IMG/VR virus record: IMGVR_UViG_3300045539_000055
Coordinates: 176 to 64,175 of that record
Reading direction: 5' to 3' (one strand)
Length of the DNA: 64,000 bases
From: a virus
Taxonomy: Duplodnaviria; Caudoviricetes
The notes beneath the pieces were generated by a model. That model did not search any database. It saw only the letters and a list, made by a program, of their open reading frames with translations, and was not told the DNA's origin. Positions within the stretch are counted from its first letter, which is position 1. Each line of letters starts with the position of its first letter. The translations under genes were made by a program, and so were the position numbers. This document shows positions 8,401 to 59,293 of the stretch, piece after piece.

Positions 8401-9997
8401 AAGTACGAGCTAACGTAATTATCGCATCAGTACTTAAAATGGTTACAGCTACACTCACTGCATTCTGCAATGCTGAACGTGTTACTTTAAGCGGGTCAAT
8501 TACTCCCATCTTAATCAAGTCTCCAAACTCTCTTGTCTTCAAGTTGTAACCTTGACCTTCAGCTATACCATCTTTGTAAATGTCAGATGCCTTCAGTCCT
8601 GCATTAGCAAGTATCTGCAAGAACGGAGCCATAAGTGCACTCTTTAAAATCATAACTGCTGCATTATACTCAGGACTTTTGTCTCCATCAATCTCTAAAG
8701 CTGCCGATTCTTCAAGCAAAGCCTTTCCTGCACCCGGTAGAATCCCTTCCTCAAGTGCGGAACGTACTGCACAAACAGCATCATCAACCCTGTCGAACAA
8801 CTCTTTTTGCTCCAAATCTGTCTGTCCACCAACGAAAATTACCCCAATTCCACCTGTTAAAGATGCAATTCTCTCCAAAATAAAGTCCCTATCGTTCTTC
8901 TTTGTGGCATTTCTATGGGCATCCCACAGCTGATTTACTCTTTCCAAGATAGCATCTTGGTCTAATCTCAAGTCTGACTTGATGATTACGGTCTTATCCT
9001 TGCTAACAATCACTTTTGCAGCGTGCCCAAGGTCTCCAAAGTTGATAATACTTAGGTCATCCCCGGTCTTCTCACTGAAATAAGTAGCCCCAACACTGAT
9101 AGCGATGTCTTGCATCAGCTCGTGCTGCTTGTACCCGAAGCTCGGAGGAGGAACTGCACATACTTTGATGTTACCTTTCATCACATTTGCCGCCAAACTA
9201 TTAATCAAGTTACCTCCACAAGGAGAAATGATTAGCAACTTCTTACCTTCACTAACAATTGGTTTCAATACGTTCTCAATCTGTAGGATATTTGTAATCT
9301 CCATATCAGCAACCAATACCATAGTGTCTTCAAAGACACACTCGTCTTTCTTTTGGTCGTTCACAAACATAGGACTCAAATAACCCCTGTCGAACTTCAA
9401 ACCTAATGTGGTCTCAGCATAGGTCTCATCGTTTTGACTCTTCTCAACTGTAACAATTCCGGTTTTACCCACATCCTTGTACACCTCAGCAATAATCTTC
9501 CCAATCTCACGGTCATTGTTCGCTGATATACTCGCCACATCTGCCAACATTGTACTCGTAACTCTCTTGCTTCGTCTGCGTAACTTGTCCACCACCTTGT
9601 CGCTGATGTCCACCATACTTCTCAAGACCTCTGTCCGATTCAATTTCTCGTCAATAAGCTCAAGTCCACTAAGAACTAACCCTTCAGTAAGTACAATAGC
9701 GGTAGTAGTACCATCTCCTGCTGCGGTAGCAGTTCTCTCGGCAGCTTCCTTCATCATCTTAACCGCAAGGTTCTCCGATGGGTCCATTAAGTCTATTGAT
9801 TTAGCAACAGTTACACCATCTTTGGTTACAGTAATCCCGTGTGTGTGGTTTGGGGATTCAATTAGCACAGGATTTCCTCCCGGACCCAATGTACTTTTCA
9901 CAGCTTTGGACATTTTCTTAACGCCACTAACTAATTTTTTTCTACCTACTTCCCCAAAACATAAATCTTTTGGAGAATAACCTTGATTTTCTAACAT
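8381..9997 (-). CDS. groEL: Chaperonin GroEL
   Basis: STLGPGG, VTKDGVTVAKSI, AGDGTTTA, ALEEGILPGAG and GVIDPLKVTRSALQNAVS; no GGM tail. Confidence 0.97.
   Translation of the reverse strand: MLENQGYSPKDLCFGEVGRKKLVSGVKKMSKAVKSTLGPGGNPVLIESPNHTHGITVTKDGVTVAKSIDLMDPSENLAVKMMKEAAERTATAAGDGTTTAIVLTEGLVLSGLELIDEKLNRTEVLRSMVDISDKVVDKLRRRSKRVTSTMLADVASISANNDREIGKIIAEVYKDVGKTGIVTVEKSQNDETYAETTLGLKFDRGYLSPMFVNDQKKDECVFEDTMVLVADMEITNILQIENVLKPIVSEGKKLLIISPCGGNLINSLAANVMKGNIKVCAVPPPSFGYKQHELMQDIAISVGATYFSEKTGDDLSIINFGDLGHAAKVIVSKDKTVIIKSDLRLDQDAILERVNQLWDAHRNATKKNDRDFILERIASLTGGIGVIFVGGQTDLEQKELFDRVDDAVCAVRSALEEGILPGAGKALLEESAALEIDGDKSPEYNAAVMILKSALMAPFLQILANAGLKASDIYKDGIAEGQGYNLKTREFGDLIKMGVIDPLKVTRSALQNAVSVAVTILSTDAIITLARTYVQAED
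9324..9339. repeat. 16-bp palindromic repeat copy (inside groEL)
   Basis: GTGTCTTCAAAGACAC; encodes VFEDT. Confidence 0.9.
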
Positions 9998-10023
9998 TTG
10001 ATTTGATTTTTAATTGTTATGTG

Positions 10024-10031
10024 CAAATATA
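10024..10031 (-). promoter_or_regulatory. -7 box TATATTTG upstream of groEL
   Basis: CAAATATA on +, 27 nt from the groEL start. Confidence 0.6.
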
Positions 10032-10150
10032 GTACATTAATTTCTAATTAAGACCCCTTTTGAAGAAAATATGCGATAGCAAAACAATAATTATGTACAA
10101 AACTACCGCAATTATTATATTGGTGTTGTTGTTTGGTGGTTGGTCTGAAT

Positions 10151-10354
10151 GTGTCATCGTGTCGGAATGTCGTTTTTTGGTTTTCCCTACTCTCTCTTAG
10201 AAAATACTACTATATATATTTTTTTTCTGACTATAAAACTTACTCTTTTTCGACATTATCGACATTAAAAGAATAAAGAGTTAATAATCAATAAGTTATA
10301 AAAATTAAGTTGTCGCAAAAACAACAGAAAATATAACCGGTTCTGTCGATTATC
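10151..10354. other. AT-rich origin-like region with TGTCG/CGACA repeats and IHF-consensus site
   Basis: GTGTCGGAA at 10159, CGACATTATCGACAT at 10251, AATCAATAAGTTA at 10286-10298; similar layout at 22488-22670. Confidence 0.45.
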
Positions 10355-10387
10355 AAAAAAAAAAGAGAGAAACTTACGAATCTCTCT
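10355..10387 (-). terminator. Intrinsic terminator
   Basis: AGAGAGA/TCTCTCT stem followed by a U-run on the minus strand, downstream of the ORF ending at 10409. Confidence 0.6.
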
Positions 10388-10408
10388 GTTTCTTAGATTG
10401 AGTTTTGA

Positions 10409-10645
10409 CTACATATCACAGCTGTCTTCACTCTCCATCATCTCAGCCATAGCATTTCCTCTTGCTATAATTGAAATCTTCTCAGCTGTCTTAATAGACT
10501 TTTTCATCTGAGCAAGTTGGGCAATACCGGTTTGTCCATCAGGTCTGTCGTTAATCAACATACCATCCTTTACAGTAAGTCCACTAAAACCTCCTGAGGT
10601 CTTTTGTTGGTAGATACTGTTCTTCAAATTTAAAGGTTGTTTCAT
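10409..10645 (-). CDS. Hypothetical protein
   Basis: Likely ATG 10645 (MKQPLNLKN...), with -7 box TATCTTTG at 10671-10678. Confidence 0.65.
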   Translation of the reverse strand: MKQPLNLKNSIYQQKTSGGFSGLTVKDGMLINDRPDGQTGIAQLAQMKKSIKTAEKISIIARGNAMAEMMESEDSCDM

Positions 10646-10817
10646 TTTGCGAAATTTTAAAAGTTCACTACAAAGATAGGTTTTTTTTATTATCAGGTTC
10701 ATATAGTGTTTGGGTAGTATAGCGGTTTGGCGAGCCGACCCCCGGCAGGAAAGTCGGATTTTTTTTGAGGGGTGGGGGGGCGTTTCCCAAAAAGTTCTCG
10801 GATTTTTTAGGCTTTTT

Positions 10818-10986
10818 GCTACAGCCTACAGCCCCCCGCTCCCGCTACAGCCTACAGCTACAGCCCCGCTCCCGCATACATTACAGCCCCGCTACAGCGA
10901 CCCGCTCCCGCTCCGCTCCGCTACAGCCTCCCGCTCCCATAGTGTGCAAATGTAAACATCAACAGCCCCGCTATGAGCTCCCCGCT
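10818..10986. repeat. GC-rich mosaic array of CCGCT and TACAGC units at the early/late divergence (probable genome-end region)
   Basis: About 11 CCGCT and 8 TACAGC counted by eye; non-coding. Confidence 0.8.
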
Positions 10987-10988
10987 TT

Positions 10989-11004
10989 GTGTCTTTAAAG
11001 ACAC
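10989..11004. repeat. 16-bp palindromic repeat copy (perfect palindrome)
   Basis: GTGTCTTTAAAGACAC. Confidence 0.9.
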
Positions 11005-11148
11005 TATAAAAAACGTGTGAGCCCCCGCAAACAAAGGGTTAACGCCCTCCGATGAATAAACAGCCATATAAACCGCATAAAATTGCCCTTTGCGAAGCCC
11101 CGCAAACATTGAGAAAATGAACTTTTATTGAAAAAATATCAAAAAACA

Positions 11149-11180
11149 TTTGCATACTATATAGAAATAGACTAATATTG
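11149..11180 (+). promoter_or_regulatory. Early promoter (-33 TTTG / -7 TAATATTG)
   Basis: 20-nt spacer, same as the promoters at 13700 and 15688; AT-rich upstream tract. Confidence 0.55.
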
Positions 11181-11261
11181 TACAAGGAATGAGCGAGTAA
11201 TTGACATCGAAATCACCTAACTTACTGAAAATCAATTAATTAACATTAAATTTTAGAAATT

Positions 11262-11900
11262 ATGAGTACACTTTTAACAATCGAGGCGGCTTTTTTAAGT
11301 CAAACAAATGTAACAACCGCAATAAATTTGCGTGAAATTAGAGGGCTTCAAAGAACTTTAGCCAATGGGCAAAAAAAGAAATTTCAACAGACTTTGGAAT
11401 TATCCGCTAAGGTGGTGGAGGCTGTAAATTGGTTTGCATCCGAAGAGGGCAAAACAGCTACAGCCGAAGCGGGCATTTATTGGACTAATGAGCAAATCGG
11501 AAATAAGGTTTTTGGATGGCAAAAAAGCTACTTTTACAAAGTAGTTAAGGCGGGCAAATTGGAGGCTACAAAGGTGGAGCAATTCAACAGCCTATGCGAT
11601 GAAGCCGAAGCGAGAGGCGAAGAGCCAAACAGAACTTTAGAGGGCTTGCTTAAATTTGCCCGCTTAGGTGGTGGAACTACAGCCGAAGAGGGTGGAGCAT
11701 CCGAAGAGGGCGAAGAGACCGAAGAGAGCGGGGAAATCGGGGTTGAAATTCGCATCCCGACAATTTTCACGATGACCTACAAAGGTGGAGCGAAAAACGT
11801 ATCAATTCGCATCAATGAGGCGGGAGCAATAGCCACCACAAACAGCACTGAGGAAATCCTTGAGGCTATAGCATTTTTAACTAATTCAATCAATCAATAA
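11262..11900 (+). CDS. First early gene, hypothetical (helical N-domain, acidic linker)
   Basis: ORF track; GWQKSYFYKVVKA could be an HTH recognition helix. Confidence 0.7.
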   Translation: MSTLLTIEAAFLSQTNVTTAINLREIRGLQRTLANGQKKKFQQTLELSAKVVEAVNWFASEEGKTATAEAGIYWTNEQIGNKVFGWQKSYFYKVVKAGKLEATKVEQFNSLCDEAEARGEEPNRTLEGLLKFARLGGGTTAEEGGASEEGEETEESGEIGVEIRIPTIFTMTYKGGAKNVSIRINEAGAIATTNSTEEILEAIAFLTNSINQ

Positions 11901-11903
11901 TTT

Positions 11904-11919
11904 GTGTCTTCAAAGACAC
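11904..11919. repeat. 16-bp palindromic repeat copy (intergenic)
   Basis: GTGTCTTCAAAGACAC, 3 nt after a stop codon. Confidence 0.9.
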
Positions 11920-11937
11920 TTTAAAACCAATTTTTTT

Positions 11938-12858
11938 ATGAGAGCAACAGCATCAACAGGCGTAATTTACACCACTACAGGAGAATCAAGAAGAGGCAAT
12001 GTTTCAGGCTACCACCAAAAGCCAAGCCCGAATTTTTTAAACAAAACAGCCCACCGCATCGATGTTGCGGGGCTTAAAGCAATCGAGCAAAGAACCGCCA
12101 TAAAATTCGATGGTAGAGAGTACGAGAGCAAATTTACAATCGGTTTTGAGGTTGAAAAAAATCAATTGAGCCGTAACGCTGTGAGAGAGTACGAACTTTT
12201 TTGCGGGTTTGAAACCGACTCAAGCTGTGGCTATGAGGCTGTAACCCATATTTTACCGCTGTTACCTGCGGGGCAATGGCGAACAAAAGTTTACGATATG
12301 ATGCATAAAGCCGAGAAAATCATCGATGACAACTACAGCCCAAGCGATAGAAGATGCGGGGGGCACATTACAATCGGATGCGATGGATTGAATGGCGAAG
12401 AGTTAAACGCCTTAGTTCGCAAAAATGCGGGCATCGTTTTAGCCCTATTCAGAAGACGATTAAAAAACACCTATTGCGGGGCTAATCGTAGAATGCAACC
12501 CGAGACCGACAGCCGATTTAATTCTACTGATGGCTATCACTACAGCAACAGCGGATGGCACGGAAAATATCAAACAGCCCTTGTAAAAGGTCATTGTTTA
12601 GAGTTTAGAATCCCGAGCAAATTCGAGAGCGTTAAACAGATGATGAGACGATACGAATTGTTTTACGAGATGGTTAACTACAGCGTGAACAACCCGAGAG
12701 GCACACACGAAAAGTTTTTGAAAAGCATCACGCCAATCATAGTTTCAATGTACAATGGCGACACCGCCAAGGCTGAGGAAATTTTGAAATTTGCGAGACA
12801 CTTCCAAAAGTTCATCAACAAGGGCGAAATTCATCAAGACATCGCAATGTACCTTTAG
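11938..12858 (+). CDS. Putative amidoligase (COOH-NH2 ligase, glutamine synthetase/GCS fold)
   Basis: FTIGFEVE, D.S..GYE, CGGHITIG and LEFR motifs; likely ATG 11938. Confidence 0.8.
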   Translation: MRATASTGVIYTTTGESRRGNVSGYHQKPSPNFLNKTAHRIDVAGLKAIEQRTAIKFDGREYESKFTIGFEVEKNQLSRNAVREYELFCGFETDSSCGYEAVTHILPLLPAGQWRTKVYDMMHKAEKIIDDNYSPSDRRCGGHITIGCDGLNGEELNALVRKNAGIVLALFRRRLKNTYCGANRRMQPETDSRFNSTDGYHYSNSGWHGKYQTALVKGHCLEFRIPSKFESVKQMMRRYELFYEMVNYSVNNPRGTHEKFLKSITPIIVSMYNGDTAKAEEILKFARHFQKFINKGEIHQDIAMYL

Positions 12859-12866
12859 CAAGCAAA

Positions 12867-12884
12867 GGAGCGGGAAACCGCTCC
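12867..12884 (+). other. GNRA hairpin abutting hammerhead 1
   Basis: GGAGCGG-GAAA-CCGCTCC, no U-tract. Confidence 0.8.
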
Positions 12885-12935
12885 GCTGTATGCGGATGAG
12901 TGTCCGCACTGATGAGCCCAAGAGGGCGAAACAGC
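12885..12935 (+). ncRNA. Type III hammerhead ribozyme 1
   Basis: GCUGUA^UGCGGA-UGAGUG-UCCGCA-CUGAUGA-GCCC-AAGA-GGGC-GAAACAGC; predicted cleavage after 12890. Confidence 0.95.
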
Positions 12936-12954
12936 AACCTAAAATTTATGAGTT

Positions 12955-13146
12955 ATGAAATTAGAAATTTGTTTAAAATCGTTTGCCTTAGCGGTAGTTT
13001 ATTTGTCCTTAGCTGTAGCCCTTACAAGCGGGAAAGTTCAGGAGTTGATTAAATTCAATTCAGTTGACAGCGAGATTTTTATGTGTGTCCTTTGCGGGAG
13101 TGCGGGCTTGCTTTGTCTAATCGCTTCAATCAAAGTAAAGCGATGA
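12955..13146 (+). CDS. 63-aa two-TM membrane protein flanked by hammerheads 1 and 2
   Basis: ORF track; two hydrophobic helices. Confidence 0.65.
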   Translation: MKLEICLKSFALAVVYLSLAVALTSGKVQELIKFNSVDSEIFMCVLCGSAGLLCLIASIKVKR

Positions 13147-13178
13147 TAGTGCGAGAGGGTGGCGATTAAATGCGGGGA

Positions 13179-13194
13179 GTGTCTTCAAAGACAC
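13179..13194. repeat. 16-bp palindromic repeat copy abutting hammerhead 2
   Basis: GTGTCTTCAAAGACAC. Confidence 0.9.
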
Positions 13195-13243
13195 CCGTAC
13201 AAGGATGAGTGTCCTTGCTGATGAGTTCAAAAGAACGAAACGG
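13195..13243 (+). ncRNA. Type III hammerhead ribozyme 2
   Basis: CCGUA^CAAGGA-UGAGUG-UCCUUG-CUGAUGA-GUUC-AAAA-GAAC-GAAACGG; predicted cleavage after 13199. Confidence 0.95.
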
Positions 13244-13266
13244 AAACCTAATCTAATCTAATCAAG

Positions 13267-13413
13267 ATGAGTAAACAAGACAAGGCGAAAGCCAAAGAAC
13301 AGCACAGAAGAGCCACAGATTTTTATGCGTGGTTGGAAAAAATGGGGAATGTTTATATGGCAGACACCCGCAGAATGGACAGAGCAATTTTAATCGTGAT
13401 TGAAAATGTGTAG
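13267..13413 (+). CDS. 48-aa early peptide
   Basis: Manually translated, MSKQDKAKAKEQHRRATDFYAWLEKMG...; starts 24 nt after hammerhead 2. Confidence 0.6.
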   Translation: MSKQDKAKAKEQHRRATDFYAWLEKMGNVYMADTRRMDRAILIVIENV

Positions 13414-13648
13414 CGTGGAGCAAATTCAGGAGGCAATACTTCGGGATGGAGTAGCCTTCATAAATGTGTGGTCGCAAGATTGCGATGGAGTTCAGGCACA
13501 ATACCACAAAGAGTTTCAATCGGTGGAGGATTTTTTAGCGTGGGAGGTGGATTTTTACGAGTGGGCAGAGGGTAGCCAAGGCTATAGCCTAACAGACAAA
13601 GACAACCTCGATGAGTCGGTTACGTGGGGTGGATGGGGCGATTACTAA
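13406..13648 (+). CDS. Small acidic early protein
   Basis: ORF track; D/E/W-rich; likely ATG 13406. Confidence 0.6.
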   Translation: MCSVEQIQEAILRDGVAFINVWSQDCDGVQAQYHKEFQSVEDFLAWEVDFYEWAEGSQGYSLTDKDNLDESVTWGGWGDY

Positions 13649-13699
13649 GCCCCGCCAAGCCCCATAAACAAAGGGAAAATGAAAATAAATGAAATTTTA

Positions 13700-13731
13700 T
13701 TTGGTAGTGTCGATTACTCGTTCTATCTTTG
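13700..13731 (+). promoter_or_regulatory. Early promoter (-33 TTTG / -7 TATCTTTG)
   Basis: Consensus Bacteroidota promoter; near-duplicate of 15688-15719. Confidence 0.8.
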
Positions 13732-13765
13732 TCGAAATTTAGTTCATTAATCTAATCTAATCACT

Positions 13766-13957
13766 ATGAAAATTATCACAGACCGCAGAGTTTTGAATGC
13801 AGTAGCAAAGAAACACGATTTAAGTTTTTGCCCAAAGTATAAGTATTACGATGGCGATGACTATGACTTGCCTCGAGAGTTTATCTTAAATGGCAGAGTT
13901 TACATTTTAAAATATTACGATGGATGTTTCAATCCGTTTTTAACTTTAATTAATTAG
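13766..13957 (+). CDS. Small early protein
   Basis: ORF track; KYYDGCFNPF motif. Confidence 0.6.
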   Translation: MKIITDRRVLNAVAKKHDLSFCPKYKYYDGDDYDLPREFILNGRVYILKYYDGCFNPFLTLIN

Positions 13958-13972
13958 TGTCTTCAAAGACAC
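13957..13972. repeat. 16-bp palindromic repeat copy (at gene boundary)
   Basis: GTGTCTTCAAAGACAC overlapping a stop codon. Confidence 0.9.
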
Positions 13973-13988
13973 ACAAAACCAATTTATT

Positions 13989-14546
13989 ATGAGACAAATC
14001 ACAGAAAGAATTTGCACAGCCTTCGAGCAACGCAGAACATTAAAAATTGACAACACCGAAACAGATGGCACAAGCCTTTGGTTGTTCGGGAATGAAATTG
14101 CCCAATGGCGAGAGGATGGAATTTGGATAACCGATGCGGGTTGGAAAAGCAAAACCACCAAGGAGCGTTTGAACGGGTTAACGGGAGTCAACATCACGCA
14201 GAGAGCGGGCAGTTGGTACATAAACGGGAACCTTTGGCAAGGCGAGTGGACAAGCGTGAATGAGAATAACGGAATAACACAGACCCCGCAAGAGGTAGTG
14301 CAATTTGACATCACAAGCGAGTGGAAAGGTAACTACAGCAAGCCAATCTATTCAGTGTATCACACACACACAGAGGCAGAAATTCTACAGATTGAGTTTA
14401 TGCTAAGTGCTATCGGAATACCTACCACAAAAACGTATTCAGATACCGATGGAGAGTACAAGCCTAATCACTTTATCGTTGTGCCCGTAGCAGAGTTTGA
14501 GAGAGCAAAACAATTTTTAACCAAAGTGTCTTTGGAGACACTATAA
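13989..14546 (+). CDS. Conserved early hypothetical protein
   Basis: LFGNEIA...AGW.S.TTKERLNGL motif. Confidence 0.75.
   Translation: MRQITERICTAFEQRRTLKIDNTETDGTSLWLFGNEIAQWREDGIWITDAGWKSKTTKERLNGLTGVNITQRAGSWYINGNLWQGEWTSVNENNGITQTPQEVVQFDITSEWKGNYSKPIYSVYHTHTEAEILQIEFMLSAIGIPTTKTYSDTDGEYKPNHFIVVPVAEFERAKQFLTKVSLETL
14526..14541. repeat. 16-bp palindromic repeat, variant copy at gene end
   Basis: GTGTCTTTGGAGACAC. Confidence 0.8.
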
Positions 14547-14558
14547 AACCTAATCAAA

Positions 14559-14687
14559 ATGAAAAATTCAAAATCGTATGCAGTTTACATTATCTACATT
14601 ATTCTAATGACATCAATGCTTGTTTCAAGTTGTGCCTCAAGGTGCAAGCAACAGCGAAGATATTGGAATACACATAGAGCAGTTTAA
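14559..14687 (+). CDS. 42-aa predicted lipoprotein
   Basis: Manually translated, MKNSKSYAVYIIYIILMTSMLVSS|CASRCKQQRRYWNTHRAV. Confidence 0.55.
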   Translation: MKNSKSYAVYIIYIILMTSMLVSSCASRCKQQRRYWNTHRAV

Positions 14688-14715
14688 AAATTATTAATCA
14701 ATAAATCAAATCAAA

Positions 14716-14787
14716 ATGAAAAAAGTTGTAGCGATATTTTTAATATCAATAGTAATATCATTTATTTTAGCCCCATACCAAGGCTAA
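14716..14787 (+). CDS. 23-aa hydrophobic micropeptide
   Basis: MKKVVAIFLISIVISFILAPYQG, preceded by an AAATCAAATCAAA leader. Confidence 0.45.
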   Translation: MKKVVAIFLISIVISFILAPYQG

Positions 14788-14798
14788 AAAAGAGGGGA

Positions 14799-14814
14799 GT
14801 GTCTTCAAAGACAC
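14799..14814. repeat. 16-bp palindromic repeat copy in extended hairpin abutting hammerhead 3
   Basis: GGGA-GTGTCTTCAAAGACAC-TCTC. Confidence 0.9.
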
Positions 14815-14818
14815 TCTC

Positions 14819-14869
14819 GCTGTCTCAAGGTAATTGCCTTGACTGACGAGCCTATCAAGGCGAAACAGC
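14819..14869 (+). ncRNA. Type III hammerhead ribozyme 3
   Basis: GCUGUC^UCAAGG-UAAUUG-CCUUGA-CUGACGA-GCCU-AUCA-AGGC-GAAACAGC; predicted cleavage after 14824. Confidence 0.95.
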
Positions 14870-14889
14870 AAATTTAAAAACAAAAAAAA

Positions 14890-15267: not shown

Positions 15268-15285
15268 TCACTAAATCAAATAAAA

Positions 15286-15676: not shown

Positions 15677-15687
15677 TTCAAAATAAA

Positions 15688-15719
15688 TTTGGCAGTGTCG
15701 ATTACTTGTCGTACCTTTG
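15688..15719 (+). promoter_or_regulatory. Early promoter (-33 TTTG / -7 TACCTTTG)
   Basis: Consensus; spacer AGTGTCGATTACT shared with the 13700 promoter. Confidence 0.8.
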
Positions 15720-15748
15720 TCGAATATTAGTTTATTAATCAGGATTCT

Positions 15749-15764
15749 GTGTCTTCAAAGACAC
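15749..15764. repeat. 16-bp palindromic repeat copy between promoter and GATase start
   Basis: GTGTCTTCAAAGACAC. Confidence 0.9.
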
Positions 15765-15786
15765 TATCCGCAAATCAAATCAAATT

Positions 15787-25185: not shown

Positions 25186-26642
25186 ATATACTCGAAAGAA
25201 ATTCAGGATTCAATAACTACGAAATGTGGAAGCAGTGCGAGTTATTAAGAGGCGTTGTATTTCAAACTGTAGAGTCTAAGATTGGAAGAGGTAAAAATGT
25301 TAGAGTTGTTCAGAACTTCAAGCACGACACACCTAAAGAGGTTAGAGAACGAATAGCTAATAGCTGTGAGTACTATAAACAATTACACCTAAAAGATATG
25401 GAAAGAAATAATCAAATTAAATTTAGAGATTATCAGTTCGACATTATCAGAAAAGGCACAGAGATACTAACTAAAAGTGGATTTGTTTACCTTGCTATGG
25501 AAGTTCGTACAGGTAAGACATTAACAAGCCTTGGAATAGCAGAAAAGATTTGCAGCAGCAATGTTTTGTTTTTAACAAAAAAGAAAGCGATAGGCAGTAT
25601 TCAGAAGGATTACGAGCTACTTAATCCTCCTTATCATTTAACAGTTACCAATTACGAGAGTTTACATAAGATAGAAGATACCGATTGGGATTTAATTGTT
25701 TGTGATGAGGCTCACTCGATGGGTGCATTTGCCAAGCCGAGCAAGAGAGCAGTTCAGGTAAAAGACCTCATAAACTTGACAAAAGCTAATGTTATATTGC
25801 TATCAGGAACCCCAACTCCTGAGTCATACTCTCAGATGTATCATCAGGTTTATGGAATACCAAATAATCCATTTAAAGAGTTCAAAACTTTTTATAAATT
25901 TTGTAGTAAATTTGTAGTTGTTAAGACTAAAATGATAAATGGCTTAGTGATGAATGACTATTCCAATGGTATGTACACCATACTTGAGGAAATGGAACCT
26001 TTTATGATAAACTATACTCAAGCAGAAGCAGGTTTTATAGCCGAAACTATTGAAGAGGTATTTGAAGTTGAGCTAAAAGAATCAACCTATAAGTTGATTA
26101 AGAAGTTGAGTAGAGATTTAATTGTTCAAGGAAAGGAAGAAGTTATCTTAGGAGACACTCCCGTAAAACTAATGAGTAAGATGCATCAGCTATACTCAGG
26201 AACTGTGAAGTTTGAAAGCGGGAAGTCTATGGTAATAGATACCACCAAAGCAGAGTTTATTAAGTCTCAATGGATGGGATGTCAAATTGGAATCTTCTAT
26301 AAGTTTAAAGAAGAGCTTGAGGCTTTGAAGCAGGTATTCGGAGATGAGCTTACTACAGAGCTTAGTGTCTTTGAAGACACTTATAAAAACATAGCATTGC
26401 AGATTGTATCAGGGCGTGAGGGAATATCGCTAAAGAAAGCAGAGTACCTCGTGTATTACAATATTGATTTTAGTGCTACGAGCTATTGGCAATCTAAGGA
26501 TAGAATGACTACCAAGGACAGACCAAAGAACGAAGTGTTTTGGATTTTCTCCAAGGGAGGGATTGAAGAGCAGATTTATAAAGCAGTAACAAAAAAGAAA
26601 GACTATACATTAGCACACTTTAAAAAAGATTTTTACTTATGA
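25179..26642 (+). CDS. SF2 (SNF2-like) helicase
   Basis: FRDYQ, RTGKT, DEAH, LSGTP and GREGISL; likely ATG 25179. Confidence 0.9.
   Translation: MVDILERNSGFNNYEMWKQCELLRGVVFQTVESKIGRGKNVRVVQNFKHDTPKEVRERIANSCEYYKQLHLKDMERNNQIKFRDYQFDIIRKGTEILTKSGFVYLAMEVRTGKTLTSLGIAEKICSSNVLFLTKKKAIGSIQKDYELLNPPYHLTVTNYESLHKIEDTDWDLIVCDEAHSMGAFAKPSKRAVQVKDLINLTKANVILLSGTPTPESYSQMYHQVYGIPNNPFKEFKTFYKFCSKFVVVKTKMINGLVMNDYSNGMYTILEEMEPFMINYTQAEAGFIAETIEEVFEVELKESTYKLIKKLSRDLIVQGKEEVILGDTPVKLMSKMHQLYSGTVKFESGKSMVIDTTKAEFIKSQWMGCQIGIFYKFKEELEALKQVFGDELTTELSVFEDTYKNIALQIVSGREGISLKKAEYLVYYNIDFSATSYWQSKDRMTTKDRPKNEVFWIFSKGGIEEQIYKAVTKKKDYTLAHFKKDFYL
26365..26380. repeat. 16-bp palindromic repeat copy (inside helicase)
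   Basis: GTGTCTTTGAAGACAC; encodes VFEDT. Confidence 0.9.
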
Positions 26643-32500: not shown

Positions 32501-35500
32501 CAGCAATTCTTTCAGCTCGAACTATATCTGCTTGAGATTTCTCTTCTACATTAATATATTCAGTGGCATCTTGAATGTTTACTGTATTTGCAAACCTTAC
32601 TTTTTGACCGCTTATTTTAGAGCCATCTACAGCCTCTTTTATCTTAGCTGCCATATCATTATAGACTTCAATACTTTTTACGATTGATGGGTCTAATTTT
32701 CCGAATTTAGAAGCTAAATCACGTAGGTTAGCATCTTTTGTTTTATCACGAGATAAACTTCTGATTTTCTTTCTTAATTTTTGAGCATCAGTTAATTTTT
32801 GAGCATAGTCAGCATTATCATAGACCTTAGTTACATACTCAATAAATCTTCTTGTAGATTTTTCACTAAGTACATTTGTATTTCCTAATCTATTTAAAAT
32901 AGCTTGCTCTTGAATCTTGTTTATTTTGCCTGACTTTCTTAATTCTTTTACTTCTTTTATTAAGGCTTGAGTAGCTTCTTTAATAGCTTTTACAGCATAT
33001 CTACCACCCCTGTCTTGGTCTTTAAGTTGCTTGTTACGTGCAACTCTTTCGGTCATTACTATTTTTCTAATGTCTTTCAATGTTCCAAGAAGTCTTGCTA
33101 CTGATGGAGCTCTTTTCTCTTTAAGACCAAAGTCTTTACGAATCTTACGCACTATAGCCTCTCTCTGTACATCTGTGGCATCTTCATAAACTTTTGACCC
33201 CATAACATAACCCATAACATTATCATAGGTTTTCTCATCACTAACGCCTCGTTTTTTAGATTTTGCTACAATACCCTTAACTTCTTCCAACATTCTGTTG
33301 AATCCCGGAATATCAAACTCAGAAATACCTTCACTTACGTTTTGAGTAGCTTGAGCCACAAGAGTCAATGCCTCGTTTATTTGTTCAGGAGTTACATCTT
33401 GGATTTCAGATACTTGCTGTATAGCATTCTGAAGAGTGATACCTGCGTTCACTAAAGCCTTTAATGTCTTAACTATGACCTTAGCTGTAGCTATAGCCAT
33501 AACTCTTGTTACATCGTTAAGCTCATTAGGGTCTAAGTCTAATGCAGTATCTAATCTATCCAAGAACTCAGATACCTTTTGAAGATTTGTTTTATCAGTG
33601 GTATCTAAATCAAGTAGGCTGTCAATTTCATTTACCTCTTGAGCAGCTTCTCTAATATTTATTCCTTCAGGTTGTAATCCAATGTCTCCTGCATCTTCTT
33701 CGTCAAATTCACTAAATTCTTCAGCAACAAGACCAACTCTCTGAGGACCAAACATTCCTTCTTTGTAGATTTGTTCTACAATTTTTTTAGCACCTTCTTC
33801 ATCTCCTTCTTCACGTAATTTTCTTGCCTGCTCTCTTAAACCTTCTATCTTATCGTTTATTCCTGAGAAATTTACAAATGCATTTTGAGCACGAGTCTCC
33901 ATTGTCATTGCTCTTCTTGCAAGTGGAGAGTACATTCTTGCGTGTACTTGCCAAGCATTCTCTTCTCCTTTAGGTCCAAAAGAATTTCCTAACTCAGCGT
34001 GTCCATAAAAATCGTGAGTAGCACGAAACACATCATTTATTAATAATGGTTTACCGTTAACATCTTTAAATCCTGAATCTCTAAGTAAAGGGTTTTCTTC
34101 TCTTTGTTGAGCTGTAATTGGTTCATTACCAAACTCGGCTTCCGTAGATAGAATAACTAATCGCTTATTATTTCTCAAGTCATCAATCATTTCTTGAGAG
34201 TTAGCATAAGGCTCTGTGTCTTTAAACTCAAATGTATATCCCTCGTTTATTAGCTCTTGATATTGCTCAATAGTTTCTTTAGCCATAGCTGCATAAGCGG
34301 CTTTGACTGTAGGGTCATTTGGATTATTTTCCATTGCAAGAAAAGCATCCTTCAGCCTTTTTAATTTGGCTTCATCTATTTTTCTTGTTCCTGAGTATTT
34401 TGGTCTTTCAGTTCCGAAAACTCTTTTGTAATATCTATCCGCAATTGTCTTAACTGCCGAAAGCGGCTTGTTGAAGAGTCTGTTTCCTGCGACAGGTCCG
34501 GCTGTTTGCTGCTCTGTTGTTGCTTGTCCATTTTCTTGTGTTTGAGTTGTTATTTGTGTCTTTGAAGACACTTTAGGAATTTTTCTATTTAAAATAGTTA
34601 TTGCTTGTTCTTTAGTTAGGTTTACTTTTTTTGTAATACCATCTTTCGCTCTCTTGTCAGGGAATGATATACTATAAGTATCTCCTACTTTAGAGATATA
34701 AGTTTTTTCAGCAATTTGAATAGGAGTTGCAATTCCATTCACATCTGATGTAGCTTTCTCATCTATTGCAGCTATAAAATCTTCAGAAGTCTTAGGTCCT
34801 TCAACAGTTACTGTTTCTGTAGTAGCTACTTCAGGTTGTTCTAATTGAGCTTGAATCTCAGAGTATCTTTGACCATCCTCTGTAGCTAACCATTTTTGCT
34901 CTGTTATATCATCAACTTCTTCTTTAGTTCTTCCCTCAGCCATAAGAGCTTGTCTTTCTTCTCGGAAAGATTCCACTCCTTTATCCATCAAAGCGTTTGC
35001 TTCTTCCTCAAGAGTTACTCTTTGCTCAGTAGTTATTTCTTGCGGTTTCGCATTGATGATAGTTTCTTCGGTAATTCCTTCGGGTTGGGCGTTTCTTTCG
35101 ACCACTTCTTGCAATCCCAAGCCGGTTTGTTCTGTGCGTAGCACGCTTTCATCTGTTGTTTGCTCTTGAATGGCATCTTCTTCTTCGTTTAAAAGGTTAC
35201 TTAATTCATTTTCTGACAACTGAGTACTTGTCTTTTCTTCTATAATAGCTTTCAATTTAGCTCCTGTCTCTTCGTCATTTTTTACACCAAGTGCTGAACG
35301 CAAAAGTCTTCTTGCGGTCATACCCTCAGTCTTCTCAACAAATTGTTCTTTGGTATATCTTACACCATCAATCATATATTGAGCTACTCCTTTCTTAGTT
35401 GTTCCTAAAGTTTTGCTTAGGTCAACTGAAGACTCTTCAGGTGCTAATTCTTTTGTATCTGCAATAACTGCTAACTCTTCGTTTATTTCTTTTATCTTAT

Positions 35501-54556: not shown

Positions 54557-54614
54557 TTGATTTGATTTTAATTTGATTTAATTTTTTACAAAGCTATACA
54601 ATTTTTTTGATATT

Positions 54615-57050
54615 TTAACGAGGCTCAAATTCTCCTAAATCAAAACCATCTAAGCTATCCTCATTGGATTCAAAATCTAATGGAGGCAAGTTATTTTTTC
54701 TTTGATTTATGAGCTTAGACTGTTGAGTATTTTGAAGGCTAACACGCTTATCTTTAGCCTCTTCTTTTAATTGGTCTCTTTGAGATATTTTTCCAACCTC
54801 CATATTATTTAACTCTAAATTGTAATTAAACTCTTCAGCCATTAAATGAGATTTTAGTTCAGCCTCTACTTGCATAGTCTTGATATTATACTCAGTCTCC
54901 ATTTGTTTTAATTGCATTTTCATTTGCAATTGACCTTGCATATTCTGCATAGATGTTTGTGCGGCTAATTGCTGAGCTTGCATTTGCTGTTGAGAAATCA
55001 TAGCTTGTTTCTGCATATCCAACTTCTCTTCTCTATCTTGCTTCTTAACTCTTTTTTGTTTCAATAGTTGATTTGCAAGTTTAATGTTTTTAAGCTCACG
55101 TATATCAATAGCATCTTCAAGATTAATATCTCCTTTAGATAATGCCATATTGATATTAGCTTCAAGTTGTGCTTTTTGTTCTTCATCAGGTGCAACTTCA
55201 ATAAAAATACCAAAATCATAAATATAAAGGTCTGCGATGTCTCCTAATATAGATACATTGTATCTACCTATCTGATTAATAAACTCATCTTTGAAATCAG
55301 AATATTCTAAAATATCTGCAATTCTATAAGTCAATGCTTCTGACATTGAACGGAAAATATATAATCCACCATCAAGTATGTGTCGAGTAGCTGTATTTGA
55401 GTTCAGAGCTGCTAACTTCTGCAAACCAACTAATGAATTAGGGTCAGGAGTAGAGCCATCTCTCGCTTCATTAAGACCTGTTACCGTTCTAATCATATCC
55501 ATATAGTGATTATAATTAGTAATAAGCATCTGAGTCTTGCCTGTTCCTGCATTTGAATTTAACTGAGTAATAGGAACTTTAGCATTATTAAAATCTCCAT
55601 CTTGAGTAAAACTTCTACCTACAACAGAACCTGTTTGGAAGTATAACCTCAAAGCATCTTCAGGATTATAAGCTGCACCATTACCTAAATCAACTTCATT
55701 AAGACCATCGGCATCAATGAATACACCATCAGGTACAACTCGGTTAATTACTTGTTGCAATTTTAAATGCGTAATTTGGATAAGGTCTGCAAAAGGTATC
55801 ATTCTACGAACTAAAGACTCTATAGCTCCTTTGTACATTCTTGGAGCACAAGCTATGTAGTTTGGTAATGCGTGTTGAGATGCAGACTTTGGTCTAACCA
55901 TATTCTCTGACATTTTCCATTGTAGAAGAATATTAGTACCCATTACCATAATCCCCTCATACCACACATCAATAGTTTTTTCTATCTTTTCAAAATTACC
56001 TTCTTCCATCATTTCTGTTGGAGGATTGAAGGTATCATCTTTTTCAATAACTCTTGAGCCACCATTATCAAGTATCTTCTTTTTATAAACTATTTTCTTA
56101 GTAGTTTTATAATTGAAATACATCAACGTACACGTATCTCTTGAGAATACACTATTCTCATAAAACTGAGCTACATTGAAATAATCATACCATCCTTGGC
56201 TGTATTGTGTTATTTCTTGTAAATCTTCTTTGGTAAGACTTTGGTCAATTTTCATTAACTCAGTTATTGCCATAGTTTTAATTTCTCCCCAATAGAAACA
56301 ATCTCTAAAATAAGGGTCTTCGGTATAACTATAAACCATATTTGCAGGGTCAACATAAGATATTTTTACCCCTGCTCCTTGAAGAAATTCGTGCTTAGCG
56401 ATAGATATACCAAGTACGGTAGCATCATAGTCAAGCCTCTTACGAATATCATCGTAATGATTGACATCAAACATTGTATTTAGAGCCTCTTCTTCAGCTA
56501 TTTCAATAGCCGGCTTGTAATTTAATTGCATATACAATGCCAACTCTTCATCAGTGTTTGGTAACTCTTCAGGGTCCATAACAAAAGGGTCAACTCCTGA
56601 TAGGTCTTTAATCTTTGTTAAGATTTCTTTACCTGCCATTTGAGACTCCATCATCTCCTGATATTTGTTTCTCTTAGCTTGAGACATAGCATCTTGTGCG
56701 TATGCCTTAACTTTAAACAATCGTTCAGACATCCCATTAACTACGATGTCAACAAACTTTGGTATAATAGGAACCGGAGTCCAATCTAAGTTTAAATACG
56801 ATAAATCGCCATCAATAGCTAATTCGTTTTTATATTTACCAACTCCTTGTTCTCCTCTTGCATATAGTCTCAGCCTATGAAATTCTCTCCATTGACCATA
56901 ATATCTGCAATTATTTCCATCTTTGCGGAACCACTCATATTGAATTGCTTGACCAACTTGAAGCCCAAATTGTTCAGTTGCTTTTTCTGCATCAGTAGCT
57001 AACTGACTTGGAAAAGCTGACGATGTAATATCTATTGTTACGTTTTTCAT
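54615..57050 (-). CDS. Portal protein
   Basis: RLYARGEQ...KYK, LDWTPVPIIPKFVDIVVNG, TGLNEARDGS; Q-rich barrel coil. Confidence 0.9.
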   Translation of the reverse strand: MKNVTIDITSSAFPSQLATDAEKATEQFGLQVGQAIQYEWFRKDGNNCRYYGQWREFHRLRLYARGEQGVGKYKNELAIDGDLSYLNLDWTPVPIIPKFVDIVVNGMSERLFKVKAYAQDAMSQAKRNKYQEMMESQMAGKEILTKIKDLSGVDPFVMDPEELPNTDEELALYMQLNYKPAIEIAEEEALNTMFDVNHYDDIRKRLDYDATVLGISIAKHEFLQGAGVKISYVDPANMVYSYTEDPYFRDCFYWGEIKTMAITELMKIDQSLTKEDLQEITQYSQGWYDYFNVAQFYENSVFSRDTCTLMYFNYKTTKKIVYKKKILDNGGSRVIEKDDTFNPPTEMMEEGNFEKIEKTIDVWYEGIMVMGTNILLQWKMSENMVRPKSASQHALPNYIACAPRMYKGAIESLVRRMIPFADLIQITHLKLQQVINRVVPDGVFIDADGLNEVDLGNGAAYNPEDALRLYFQTGSVVGRSFTQDGDFNNAKVPITQLNSNAGTGKTQMLITNYNHYMDMIRTVTGLNEARDGSTPDPNSLVGLQKLAALNSNTATRHILDGGLYIFRSMSEALTYRIADILEYSDFKDEFINQIGRYNVSILGDIADLYIYDFGIFIEVAPDEEQKAQLEANINMALSKGDINLEDAIDIRELKNIKLANQLLKQKRVKKQDREEKLDMQKQAMISQQQMQAQQLAAQTSMQNMQGQLQMKMQLKQMETEYNIKTMQVEAELKSHLMAEEFNYNLELNNMEVGKISQRDQLKEEAKDKRVSLQNTQQSKLINQRKNNLPPLDFESNEDSLDGFDLGEFEPR

Positions 57051-59293
57051 TTGATTAATTGACTTGTTGAACCTTCATTAGAATACCTTGCGAAGTTAAT
57101 ACTTATTTTTGAATCTTTTTTCTCCGGCATATATAAATGCTTTTGGTTAGCCATAATAGCCAATCCCGAGCTAATAGATGCATCAAATTTAGTTCTATCG
57201 TTTATATCAAATTTCGCCCAATCCTCTAATGTACGTGTAAAAGGCATAGTACCCATATCTCCTCCATCTCTATAATCTCCTGTAAAATCTATTCCAACAT
57301 ATTTCTCTATGTAAGATTCAATTGCAGATGCGTGAGACTGTTTTACATCTTCGGATGAGTTTGGTATTCCTCCAAGTTCACGTTCAGTTTTAGTTAATTT
57401 ATTATATTGCTTGTCAGGTCTATTTAGACAGTAGTGTCTATAGCCTCTGTTTTTGAAATGATAAAGCAATCGAGGTTTATTGTTCTCTATAAGGATTGGC
57501 ATACCATAAAAAACGCAAGCCATAAGAACTTCTTCAAAGAATATCTCTGCGGTCTGAGGTCTTGCTATATACTCTAAGAAAAACTCATTTGAAGGAGCAT
57601 CATCCATATTGAACTTAGTAAGACCGTGTAGAGAACCATTTGAACCTCTACCTCCTACTACTGCTGATATATCATAGCTATCGCATCCAAACGAACCAAT
57701 GTGCTCATTTCCGGGATGCTTCATTCCATTTCGTAAATGAATATTGTTTTGCAAATGTTTTGCCGGGGTCCAACTAACTAAGAATCTACCCCTTGGGTCA
57801 GGAGTAAAAACAACCTGAGTATCTTTTATTCCATCTCTCCAATGAAGAGTACCTCTTGTTGTAAAGTGTTCTTTTATAAGACTGTCGTTATAGTCTATCT
57901 GTTGGTATATTTTTGTAAGGTTAAATAAAGATTGTTTACTCTCATCTCTAAATGCGTGAGACTCAGTTCGTGGAAACTGACGATAGAACTCATTTAGTGC
58001 ATCAGCATCGCTTTTAAGCGAATCAACTTCAGCTTCCCAATAGTTTATTGCTCCATTTTTTATCATCATACCATCAACCCCTAAAATAGGTTCTTCAGGT
58101 TTATGAAAAACAGGCATACCATATCTATCTATAAATCCTTCCATATTCCATTCCATTGGAATAAACAAAGAGTACAATCCGCTTTTAGTTTGTCCGTTAG
58201 CATTACGATGTTTTACATCTGAATCCTCAAACATATCTTTGTAGTTCTGACCTCCTTTTGATAATGCATTTGAGGTTGACCCCATCATACACTTACCAAT
58301 GATTTTAGAACCCAATCTTAAACAGGTTTTTGTTACTCGCCAATTCTCTTTGATATTGTTTGGCTTGGTCCATTTACCTGACTCATCGTGAGCCAAGAAT
58401 AATAGTTTCTCCCCATCATAAGAGTTGTCTTCTGTATTCTTCCAATCTATTGATGTATCTAACCCCTCTATGATTTCATTTTCAGTGTCGTACATATTTT
58501 TCTTTGTAATCTTAGATGCCGGTACACGGAAAGCTAATTCTGTCTTTGGCTTATCCATACCATCCATAATTGGCTTGAAGAAAAATGGAAGTCTGCTATT
58601 TATAGGAACTACTTTGTCAGTAAACATTTTCTTAGCATCGGAACCCGTTTTTGATAAGATTCCAATCCTTGCATCACGAGCAAGTGTTCCTACGTTTACA
58701 CATTCAGATGAAGACATAAATGAGAATCCTGAACGCCTGATTTTCAAGTATATCATACCGAAACTTCTTGAGTCCGCCCTACAGGCTTCCCAAAAAATCC
58801 AATAGATTCTATTTGCTTCACGAAAGTCGGGATAACCAATGTCAATGCTTGACCACTGAAGGTACATATAATGAGAACCCGTTATATAAGTAGGGATTCC
58901 ATTATTCATAAACCATACCCCGTTCTCTCTGCAATCAAATTCATTCTCAATATAATCAACCCATCTATTTTTAAAATCAGATGGCATTTCATTCCATTGG
59001 AATATTGATTGTATTCTTGAAAGTTGTTTTGGAAGTGGTTCTCTTTCCCAATATTGTTCAGAGTTTGAAGCGTGTCTTTGAAGACACTTTTTTGGAGCAG
59101 GTGGTAGTGCAATATGAAGTCCTGCTATATTTACAATTTCTCCTATCTGCCCTGTTTTGGAAATTACTATGACATCATATTGGTCATTATAGCCATATAG
59201 CCAAGACTTATTGCCATTCTTTTTAGTAATAGAATGGGCAGGTATGTAATCTTTAACTACATTGTATAAACTATTTAGACCTTCTTTCTGCAA
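57047..59293 (-). CDS. terL: Terminase large subunit
   Basis: YLKIRRSGFS, HDESGKW, GSTSN, FGCDSYD, IENNKP and DASISSGLA; start uncertain (TTG 59293 or 59341). Confidence 0.92.
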   Translation of the reverse strand: MQKEGLNSLYNVVKDYIPAHSITKKNGNKSWLYGYNDQYDVIVISKTGQIGEIVNIAGLHIALPPAPKKCLQRHASNSEQYWEREPLPKQLSRIQSIFQWNEMPSDFKNRWVDYIENEFDCRENGVWFMNNGIPTYITGSHYMYLQWSSIDIGYPDFREANRIYWIFWEACRADSRSFGMIYLKIRRSGFSFMSSSECVNVGTLARDARIGILSKTGSDAKKMFTDKVVPINSRLPFFFKPIMDGMDKPKTELAFRVPASKITKKNMYDTENEIIEGLDTSIDWKNTEDNSYDGEKLLFLAHDESGKWTKPNNIKENWRVTKTCLRLGSKIIGKCMMGSTSNALSKGGQNYKDMFEDSDVKHRNANGQTKSGLYSLFIPMEWNMEGFIDRYGMPVFHKPEEPILGVDGMMIKNGAINYWEAEVDSLKSDADALNEFYRQFPRTESHAFRDESKQSLFNLTKIYQQIDYNDSLIKEHFTTRGTLHWRDGIKDTQVVFTPDPRGRFLVSWTPAKHLQNNIHLRNGMKHPGNEHIGSFGCDSYDISAVVGGRGSNGSLHGLTKFNMDDAPSNEFFLEYIARPQTAEIFFEEVLMACVFYGMPILIENNKPRLLYHFKNRGYRHYCLNRPDKQYNKLTKTERELGGIPNSSEDVKQSHASAIESYIEKYVGIDFTGDYRDGGDMGTMPFTRTLEDWAKFDINDRTKFDASISSGLAIMANQKHLYMPEKKDSKISINFARYSNEGSTSQLIK
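59072..59087. repeat. 16-bp palindromic repeat copy (inside terL)
   Basis: GTGTCTTTGAAGACAC; encodes CLQRH. Confidence 0.9.

Follow-up and report, generated by a model that had tools for sequence, protein, structure and literature searches.

In enterobacteria, repetitive extragenic palindromes (REPs) and bacterial interspersed mosaic elements (BIMEs) are conserved, transcribed and intercistronic, can cap the upstream mRNA and are uniform within a genome. The OB sites read by KorB on plasmid RK2, like the sites of the ParB-parS and SopB-sopC systems, amount to about a dozen short palindromes per replicon, some of them far from promoters, and the dimeric helix-turn-helix (HTH) protein that reads them comes from a gene on the same element. 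The stoperators of mycobacteriophages in cluster A, as summarized in PMC9283540, are present in many copies in transcribed regions, mostly in short intergenic gaps, where the bound regulator stops elongation. Clustered hammerhead ribozymes in phage and prophage transcripts, as outlined in PMC3088659, flank single genes, which implies that long transcripts are cut to gene-length mRNAs. Here we analyse a 16-bp palindrome, GTGTCTTNNAAGACAC, in a 64-kb phage of Bacteroidota (Duplodnaviria; Caudoviricetes). The window, 64,000 nucleotides (positions 176 to 64,175 of IMG/VR record IMGVR_UViG_3300045539_000055), is nearly the whole 64,175-bp virus record, which has direct terminal repeats.

The palindrome also occurs in well over a hundred related contigs, at about ten copies each. 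We propose, with a probability of roughly 0.45, that it is first of all a two-fold symmetric double-stranded DNA site for a dimeric phage-encoded HTH protein, the likeliest binder being E1, whose gene comes first in the rightward early operon. At hammerhead ribozymes the palindrome acts as RNA, and flanking base pairs that include G·U extend its hairpin to 10-12 bp beside the cleavage site.

Results

Copies of the palindrome in the phage genome

The palindrome has 12 exact matches in the window and none in each of 100 dinucleotide-preserving shuffles. Allowing up to two mismatches added a single match, the variant GTGTCTTTGGAGACAC at 14526 (shuffle mean 0.25). The full 64,175-bp record contains the same 13 copies, and the pattern read backwards, used as a control, had no match in the whole record. 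The stretch 10,989-16,944, about 9% of the genome, contains nine of the 13 copies. Read on the sense strand, the centre is TCAA in nine copies, TTGA in two (9324 and 26365), TTAA in one and TTGG in one. The spacing from stop codon to copy is 0-11 nt for most window copies; those standing alone begin at most 3 nt past the upstream stop codon, or overlap it, and lie 16-22 nt ahead of the next ATG. The copies are the following.

9324..9339, unstranded: palindrome in the phage groEL gene (8381-9997, minus strand), encoding VFEDT
10989..11004, unstranded: palindrome with centre TTAA in the divergent control region, 257 nt ahead of the E1 start and just past a GC-rich repeat tract
11904..11919, unstranded: standalone palindrome, 3 nt past the E1 stop and 18 nt ahead of the next ATG
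13179..13194, plus strand: hammerhead-linked palindrome (sequence match, Rfam neighbour, fold)
13957..13972, unstranded: standalone palindrome overlapping the stop of open reading frame (ORF) 13766-13957, 16 nt ahead of the next ATG
14526..14541, unstranded: variant GTGTCTTTGGAGACAC at the 3' end of ORF 13989-14546, encoding the C-terminal VSLETL*, 17 nt ahead of the next ATG
14799..14814, plus strand: hammerhead-linked palindrome, flanks lengthening the RNA stem to 10 bp
15749..15764, unstranded: standalone palindrome in the 5' leader of the GATase/GGACT gene, 22 nt ahead of its ATG
16929..16944, plus strand: hammerhead-linked palindrome with a 10-bp extended stem
21978..21993, unstranded: palindrome at the 3' end of ORF 21651-22001, encoding VSSKTQE*
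26365..26380, unstranded: palindrome in the SNF2-type helicase gene (25134-26642), encoding VFEDT
34556..34571, unstranded: palindrome in the gene of the 2952-aa virion protein, encoding VSSKT
59072..59087, unstranded: palindrome in the N-terminal part of terL, encoding CLQRH

All 13 positions had been located correctly in a preliminary description of this DNA, as had the three reading frames VFEDT, VSSKT and CLQRH, the last of these only with a terL start upstream of the first ATG. Such a start, probably TTG 59293 (748 aa, overlapping the upstream gene), would fit the stop-to-stop frame of 770 codons, the PHROG alignment, which lacks the first ~87 positions, and the annotation of terL with 748 aa in the closest GenBank relative; the first ATG, 58987, would lose about 100 N-terminal residues that are conserved in relatives. 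The same description had the copies densest near a presumed first-entering end of the genome: the clustering is real, and no result identifies a first-entering end.

Conservation and sequence constraint

The motif is conserved among relatives and specific to the clade, with a concerted shift between lineages. In 56 related IMG/VR loci found by a search with a neighbouring early gene, at least one exact copy was present in 51. After identical contexts were dropped, 257 exact copies remained, with centres TCAA (134), TTGA (63) and TTAA (40). Five complete relatives have 12, 10, 11, 10 and 7 copies, with a dense early cluster and a few distant copies in each, and most relatives have an equivalent of copy 10989. 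In a second set of 80 further loci, found through E1, GTGTC-N6-GACAC ranked first among the 5+6+5 palindrome arms, outright or in a tie, in 78, all except L089 and L161, and the inner 6 nt were variable, often without self-complementarity (for example CTCAAA and TTCGAT). The resulting consensus, GTGTCY-TYRA-RGACAC, has half-sites of 5 bp, GTGTC and GACAC, that do not vary and whose centres are 11 bp apart, with a variable 6-bp middle between them.

Two related lineages carry words of their own. In MW202828.1, the closest GenBank record (terL 81% identical), the word is GTGTCGTTAACGACAC, present in 14 copies that are placed between stop codon and ATG, like those of the window, and are palindromic through the centre in 14/14. 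The word of the loci L055 and L056 is (A)GTCTGTTCNAACAGAC(T), with 9 copies in the first and 12 in the second. No repeated palindrome was found in the Flavobacterium phage elemoA. A search with the MW-type 16-mer returned 11 stretches, one of them a multi-copy relative; E1 of MW202828, used as a query for more members of the variant lineages, gave no confirmed relatives, and E1 of L056 gave four loci, all from known or close contigs. Bacterial genomes contained scattered single copies in unrelated taxa among the matches listed, together with one phage-like contig, WTJX01000555.1 (L202, L249; 56 kb), binned in a Cytophagales metagenome-assembled genome. This contig has at least five palindrome copies and a homologue of the GGACT gene (53% identity), and is probably a phage of this clade and a hint at the host group. 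No published description of the motif turned up: none of the four 16-mers was found in the literature searched.

To classify contexts, 291 distinct copies with at most one stem mismatch were used. Directly ahead of a type III hammerhead lie 74 of them, 68 are at most 60 nt ahead of a plus-strand ATG (mostly 15-22 nt), 52 are otherwise intergenic and 97 are inside ORFs, the ORF calls being crude (longest ORFs, and only those that start with ATG). Of the 53 changes in single-mismatch copies, 46 are at the inner positions 6, 7, 10 and 11, and seven at the ten outer positions. For the pair 6/11, read on the sense strand, T·G and C·A are about equally common in standalone copies (13 vs 12, n=162) and in in-gene copies (10 vs 15, n=162); at hammerheads T·G (8) and C-G (6) stand against C·A (3), and this comparison of hammerhead-linked with other copies relies on small, phylogenetically dependent counts. 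The single-mismatch copies of the first data set (G·U 18 vs A·C 10) were not decisive. Flanks of standalone and in-gene copies do not extend the helix (0.49 bp vs 0.64 in the control).

The copy in terL is unchanged over its 16 nt in 4/4 relatives, in a segment whose amino-acid identity is 72-88%, and the flanking codons vary in those relatives, synonymously included. MW202828, with its other palindrome, encodes CYARS at this place. Conservation at synonymous sites, which the preliminary description had raised for in-gene copies, is thus found at terL. The groEL copy is weaker evidence for in-gene selection than the terL copy: in an alignment read by eye, VFEDT is retained by about 19 relatives, and the exact palindrome by about 10 of these. 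Taken together, the invariant half-sites, the symmetric degeneracy, the lack of flank extension and the conservation in terL argue for a sequence-specific reader with two-fold symmetry.

The palindrome as RNA at hammerhead ribozymes

The preliminary description had three copies (13179, 14799 and 16929) forming a hairpin in front of a hammerhead, and each of them does lie directly ahead of a type III hammerhead. The hammerheads of the window, and one hairpin absent from that description, are these.

12868..12885, plus strand: non-palindrome hairpin GGAGCGG-GAAA-CCGCTCC, replacing the palindrome 5' of hammerhead 12883
12883..12937, plus strand: type III hammerhead (RF00008, 45.1 bits; fold)
13192..13246, plus strand: type III hammerhead (RF00008, 34.1 bits)
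14817..14871, plus strand: type III hammerhead (RF00008, 45.1 bits; fold)
16947..17001, plus strand: type III hammerhead (RF00008, 34.2 bits; fold)

All four are in the early operon and end 16-20 nt ahead of the next ATG, and each has a hairpin before it that is flush with stem III. They contain the CUGANGA and GAAA cores, and their three stems pair and show covariation. At Rfam gathering thresholds there was no match in the window, the gathering score of RF00008 (48.5) being higher than all four scores, and standard annotation would therefore miss these ribozymes. An Rfam E-value search of 51 kb of L056, L062 and L051 returned a tRNA only; it took targeted searches to reveal the hammerheads.

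The RNA role of the palindrome at hammerheads had escaped the preliminary description. At 63 hammerhead-linked copies the flanks, read on the sense strand with G·U allowed, add 3.86 bp of helix, whereas the antisense reading adds 0.92 bp and shuffled partners 1.98 ± 0.21. The flank pairing with G·U is thus a property of the sense strand only. At the first flank position, 24 of these copies have a Watson-Crick pair, 31 have G·U, 3 have A·C and 5 have a mismatch. Minimum-free-energy folds give a 10-bp hairpin flush against stem III.

All 81 hammerheads found by pattern (81/81) have a hairpin directly 5'. This hairpin is the palindrome in 57 and an unrelated one in 24, with intermediates nearly absent; the unrelated hairpins are mostly GC-rich, with folds of -6.2 to -21.0 kcal/mol. 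Beside 47 palindrome-linked hammerheads, stem I has 27 different 5-nt arms, which pair in 47/47, and the palindrome arms show no drift. In L055 and L056 the arrangement is another one.

L055 180-3450 and L056 3770-7700: type I hammerheads with a long stem III, which is formed by the palindrome of that lineage

There the palindrome makes up the closed stem III, with the cleavage site 3-7 nt beyond it; the best Rfam match of these ribozymes is a weak one to RAGATH-1 (31.6 bits vs a gathering score of 56.3). Across both topologies the hairpin ends 3-8 nt ahead of the cleavage site, so that the upstream product would end in a hairpin with a short tail. Covariation among these sequences shows hairpin and hammerhead to form an obligatory module, and no published description of an obligatory hairpin at the cleavage site was found in a limited literature search. 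In MW202828 a pattern search found no hammerhead beside its 14 palindrome copies. A marine metatranscriptome with 18% of the sampled words yielded contigs of relatives only, mostly 90-95% alike and without information on RNA ends, and three other runs yielded next to nothing.

E1, the candidate reader

11262..11900, plus strand: E1 (212 aa), the gene that opens the rightward early operon, its product being a candidate HTH dimer for binding the palindrome

E1 homologues were found wherever a palindrome family occurs, and none was detected in elemoA or in locus L060, both of which are without the motif. Homologues of at least 37% identity all go with GTGTC...GACAC sites with a TT-type centre, and those of at most 30% identity go with the two variant words. 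In MW202828, terL is 81% identical, E1 is 29% identical and the palindrome is different; as judged from these comparisons, the type of motif goes with E1 and the early region rather than with the structural module. The putative recognition helices differ as well: QKSYFYKVVKAG in the window and QKSFFYKVVKAG in the clade majority, vs SKAQGHKYARAS and KKAFFSEMINLG.

The AlphaFold model of E1 (pLDDT, the predicted local distance difference test, 82) had only weak best matches, among them the DNA-binding domains of KorB (8qa8_A, Z 5.0, root-mean-square deviation 3.5 over 84 residues), DeoR (7bhy, Z 5.0), KorB with operator (1r71_A, Z 4.4), SopB (3mkw, Z 4.1) and VirB, all of them within the range (Z < 8) that VIA-align notes as noise level, where common arrangements match. 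As a homodimer the model scored 0.49, vs 0.00 for the best of three controls; of proteins solved as one-chain pairs 20 of 30 reached this mark, and of those solved as single chains 1 of 23 did. The homodimer runs had at least 91% of their contacts in common, with a partner pLDDT of at least 77. The modelling supports, rather than shows, homodimer pairing of E1. An Atlas search returned hypothetical viral clusters only, the nearest named family being DUF3102 at 0.91, a mere lead.

Genomic setting

From about 10.7 kb the minus-strand genes extend leftwards, past the record ends and over the structural genes, as far as 29.5 kb; the plus-strand genes occupy 11.26-29.5 kb. TerL and portal share 44-47% identity with proteins of Flavobacterium phage elemo, and the portal shares 34% with that of Cellulophaga phi38:1. 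Further features of the window are these.

8381-9997, minus strand: GroEL-like chaperonin, phage-encoded
11938-12858 and 15787-16917, plus strand: early gene pair, the second gene a fused GATase/GGACT (Pfam GGACT, weakly GATase_4)
13690-13765 and 15680-15748, plus strand: ~70-nt repeated element (TTTGG-Y-AGTGTCGATTACT...CTTTGTCGAA) with perfect consensus promoter matches inside
13700..13731, plus strand: promoter match TTTG-N20-TATCTTTG, inside the longer repeated element
15688..15719, plus strand: promoter match TTTG-N20-TACCTTTG, ~30 nt upstream of palindrome 15749
19925-20227 and 28436-28930, plus strand: two small DnaA-domain-IV-like HTH proteins, phage-encoded
20247-21645, plus strand: Sak single-strand annealing protein and RecE-like exonuclease, phage-encoded
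29538-38396, minus strand: 2952-aa virion protein, its sole detectable domain lysin-like (residues ~1321-1512)
57047-59359, minus strand: terL, 770-codon stop-to-stop frame

The promoter matches follow TTTG-N20-TAnnTTTG, which we take to be the Bacteroidota promoter consensus. In its strict form (TTTG-N18-21-TAnnTTTG) it has three matches in the window, of which only 15688-15719 lies just upstream of a copy (15749), with none beside the other 12. In the divergent control region, GC-rich short tandem repeats (CTACAGC, CCCGCT/CCGCT) fill 10819-10938, directly ahead of palindrome 10989; possible identities of this tract are an origin, a packaging site and a small-RNA region. Positions 10742-10766 (plus strand) contain a hairpin with a T-run that resembles a terminator. 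Relatives of the 2952-aa virion protein are of comparable or larger size, for instance those encoded by 11-kb genes in MW202828 and elemoA.

Two further functions for the palindrome were considered and rejected. As an intrinsic terminator it lacks the right surroundings: the flanks are A-rich leaders, and a terminator scan of 9000-23000, a region with 10 of the 13 copies, picked out just two of the palindromes, 9324 on the plus strand and 14797-14816 on the minus strand. As a hairpin promoter for an N4/crAss-type virion RNA polymerase it would require such an enzyme, and the eight largest proteins have no DxDxD-type motif, no phage RNA polymerase or homology to one was found, the 2952-aa protein matches a lysin-like domain only, and a site 5' of or within a ribozyme cannot promote that ribozyme.

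Discussion

The above findings suggest the following model. E1 would be made first. It would next fill some ten sites crowded at cistron junctions within its own early operon, as well as a few conserved sites in the groEL, helicase, virion-protein and terL genes. We infer that the array would act as a multi-site operator or roadblock, shutting off or tuning early transcription. The hammerhead, for its part, needs a stable hairpin beside its cleavage site, any hairpin being sufficient, and the transcript of the palindrome has therefore been co-opted at hammerheads, as the flank pairing shows; flank pairs lengthen the co-opted hairpin to 10-12 bp, so that the cleaved upstream mRNA would end in a hairpin. 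The preliminary description had likewise favoured a DNA site for a dimeric protein and had listed the first early gene among its candidate binders. The former proposal is consistent with the two-fold symmetric consensus, the symmetric degeneracy, the nucleotide conservation in terL and the clade specificity. The latter gains from the HTH-like model, the homodimer model and the co-occurrence with the motif, and loses from fold matches at noise level.

Other observations also weigh against a DNA site for E1. E1 had no match in searches against Pfam and PHROG, in a PDB profile search or with Foldseek against the PDB, and its co-occurrence with the motif may be mere shared ancestry of the early region. 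Every copy lies within transcribed DNA, which would fit an RNA role equally. The spacing from standalone copy to ATG equals that from hammerhead 3' end to ATG, and the sense-strand bias towards a TCAA centre, 79 vs 6 at hammerheads, is seen in standalone intergenic copies too (85 vs 39). A palindrome yields the same stem from either strand, so that the orientation data do not discriminate against an RNA-binding factor; the crude ORF calls and the small counts for pair 6/11 belong here as well.

These points lead to the main alternative, possible though doubtful, an RNA-level element throughout: the transcribed hairpin (6-7 bp with a UNNA loop) would be a cistron-boundary signal in early polycistronic mRNA, recognised by a sequence-specific RNA-binding protein or endoribonuclease and capping the processed 3' ends of cistrons, with hammerheads cutting at the copies that have one and an enzyme cutting at the others. 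Such an element would be comparable, on a ribozyme basis, to the RNase III sites that separate the early genes of T7. The hammerhead-linked copies are demonstrably RNA hairpins with G·U pairs, the palindrome is itself stem III in the L055/L056 type I ribozymes, and every hammerhead found by pattern has its hairpin. Standalone copies, 0-3 nt past stops and 16-22 nt ahead of ATG, are positioned like hammerhead 3' ends, and their hairpin, as folded for copy 11904, reaches -6.8 kcal/mol (z = -3.3). Nevertheless, flanks never extend the standalone copies; the loop-closing pair is symmetrically degenerate, C·A being as common as U·G; and conservation is higher at the outermost pair than further in, contrary to simple hairpin thermodynamics. 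In the loop, positions 1 and 4 are self-complementary, as is the whole loop in MW202828, which has its 14 copies and no hammerhead found. The conserved terL copy has no cistron boundary, the helicase and virion-protein copies are far from gene ends, and no RNA-binding or nuclease candidate was identified.

Less probable still is a coupled function in which the one palindrome is read both as DNA and as RNA, E1 binding the DNA and the same protein, or the RNA stem, setting hammerhead cleavage and 3'-end capping. If true, transcription shut-off and ribozyme mRNA processing would be joined through one 16-nt word, and this word and its reader would co-evolve throughout a large clade of uncultured Bacteroidota phages.

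It is improbable that the palindromes at junctions serve chiefly as exchange points for recombination by the phage Sak and RecE-like system, after the manner of PeSLs (early promoter and stem-loop cassettes; documented in outline in PMC4122927 and PMC2839356), although this would explain the mosaic early region. The preliminary description had suggested that early-gene indels might break at the motif, and this holds in part: about three of about seven indel or replacement boundaries between the window and L006, read from the list of high-scoring segment pairs, end at a palindrome (13957, 14799 and 21978), and the rest are without one. Copy 13957 is the right boundary of a 63-aa gene that is missing in L006. 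At the position orthologous to window 21978, L006 has a decayed copy, GTGTTTTAAAAAACAC, 6 nt after an intact palindrome (20703-20740). The ~70-nt promoter-bearing element recurs at different junctions in relatives, as does the unit of promoter and palindrome, window 15669-15785 resembling L006 11744-11858. Such boundaries, however, sit at gene junctions anyway; 16 bp is very short for homologous exchange, selection for evolvability would hardly fix in-gene copies at synonymous sites, and invariant half-sites with a free centre would be left unexplained. With some indel boundaries at palindromes and Sak/RecE-like genes in the phage, a PeSL-like shuffling role may add to the main function.

A DNA site read by another protein is similarly improbable, the candidates being the lone winged HTH protein encoded on the opposite strand (7045-7491), one of the DnaA-domain-IV-like proteins (19925-20227 or 28436-28930) or a host factor. 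The first has weak PHROG matches that include a 'transcriptional regulator' family (E = 0.0022), and its MW202828 homologue is annotated 'repressor protein', but it fits worse than E1: its divergence is not tied to motif type (61% identity in the variant lineage of L057, yet 31-40% in L043 and L048, which have the window motif), and the motif-free elemoA has a homologue. Both DnaA-C-like proteins are HTH proteins, and DnaA domain IV reads asymmetric boxes, which counts against them. A host factor finds no sign of enrichment in bacterial chromosomes among the matches listed.

For an abundant, uncultured clade of aquatic Bacteroidota podophages, the palindrome offers a ready and cheap test case of gene regulation: the 16-bp word is well defined, each genome has about ten sites, specificity comes in three natural variants, and there is one strong candidate for the reader. 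Should E1 bind the site, there would be multi-site control of the KorB or stoperator kind in a phage with no sign of lysogeny.

Comparison with known systems

With KorB-OB, ParB-parS and SopB-sopC the phage shares the number of short palindromes per replicon, some far from promoters; as for KorB, the operators are multiple and identical (13 copies in the window, 7-12 in the five complete relatives). In those systems the dimeric HTH reader is encoded on the same element, and here E1, with its weak fold matches, is the candidate. The likeness to parS/NBS/matS sites seen in the preliminary description extends to copy number and clustering and to nothing beyond these. The palindrome GTGTCTTYRAAGACAC has no match to the parS consensus, in agreement with that description, and is not known to be related to the OB consensus. 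Sequence searches detected no ParB/Srx N-terminal (CTPase) domain in E1, and about 30 phage proteins scanned gave no ParA-like match. Unlike KorB or parS sites, the copies cluster at the cistron junctions of a phage early operon.

Stoperators are alike in that many copies of one short site are spread across the genome within transcribed regions. They are, however, asymmetric and bound by the monomeric immunity repressor of temperate phages, whereas the site described here is two-fold symmetric and has no asymmetry tied to transcription (in-gene centres 74 vs 62). No lysogeny module was seen in the phage, and no integrase in the subset of its proteins that was scanned.

PeSL cassettes of T4-type phages resemble the early region in their near-identical short regulatory repeats bordering small variable early genes, and copy 15749 with its promoter makes up a promoter and stem-loop unit (15688-15764). 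The conserved unit here is nevertheless 16 bp, not a promoter-terminator composite, and copies also lie inside conserved genes. REPs, unlike the phage palindrome, are longer, imperfect, spread by RAYT (REP-associated tyrosine) transposases and not inside genes; the subset of phage proteins scanned contained no RAYT-type transposase.

The clustered phage hammerheads are matched by several ribozymes that likewise flank single genes, with the difference that each one here has an obligatory hairpin at its cleavage site, which in 57/81 is one invariant palindrome that is also found without a ribozyme. This module suggests a ribozyme route to hairpin-capped monocistronic mRNAs in hosts without Shine-Dalgarno-led initiation, and is a natural analogue of the ribozyme insulators of synthetic biology.

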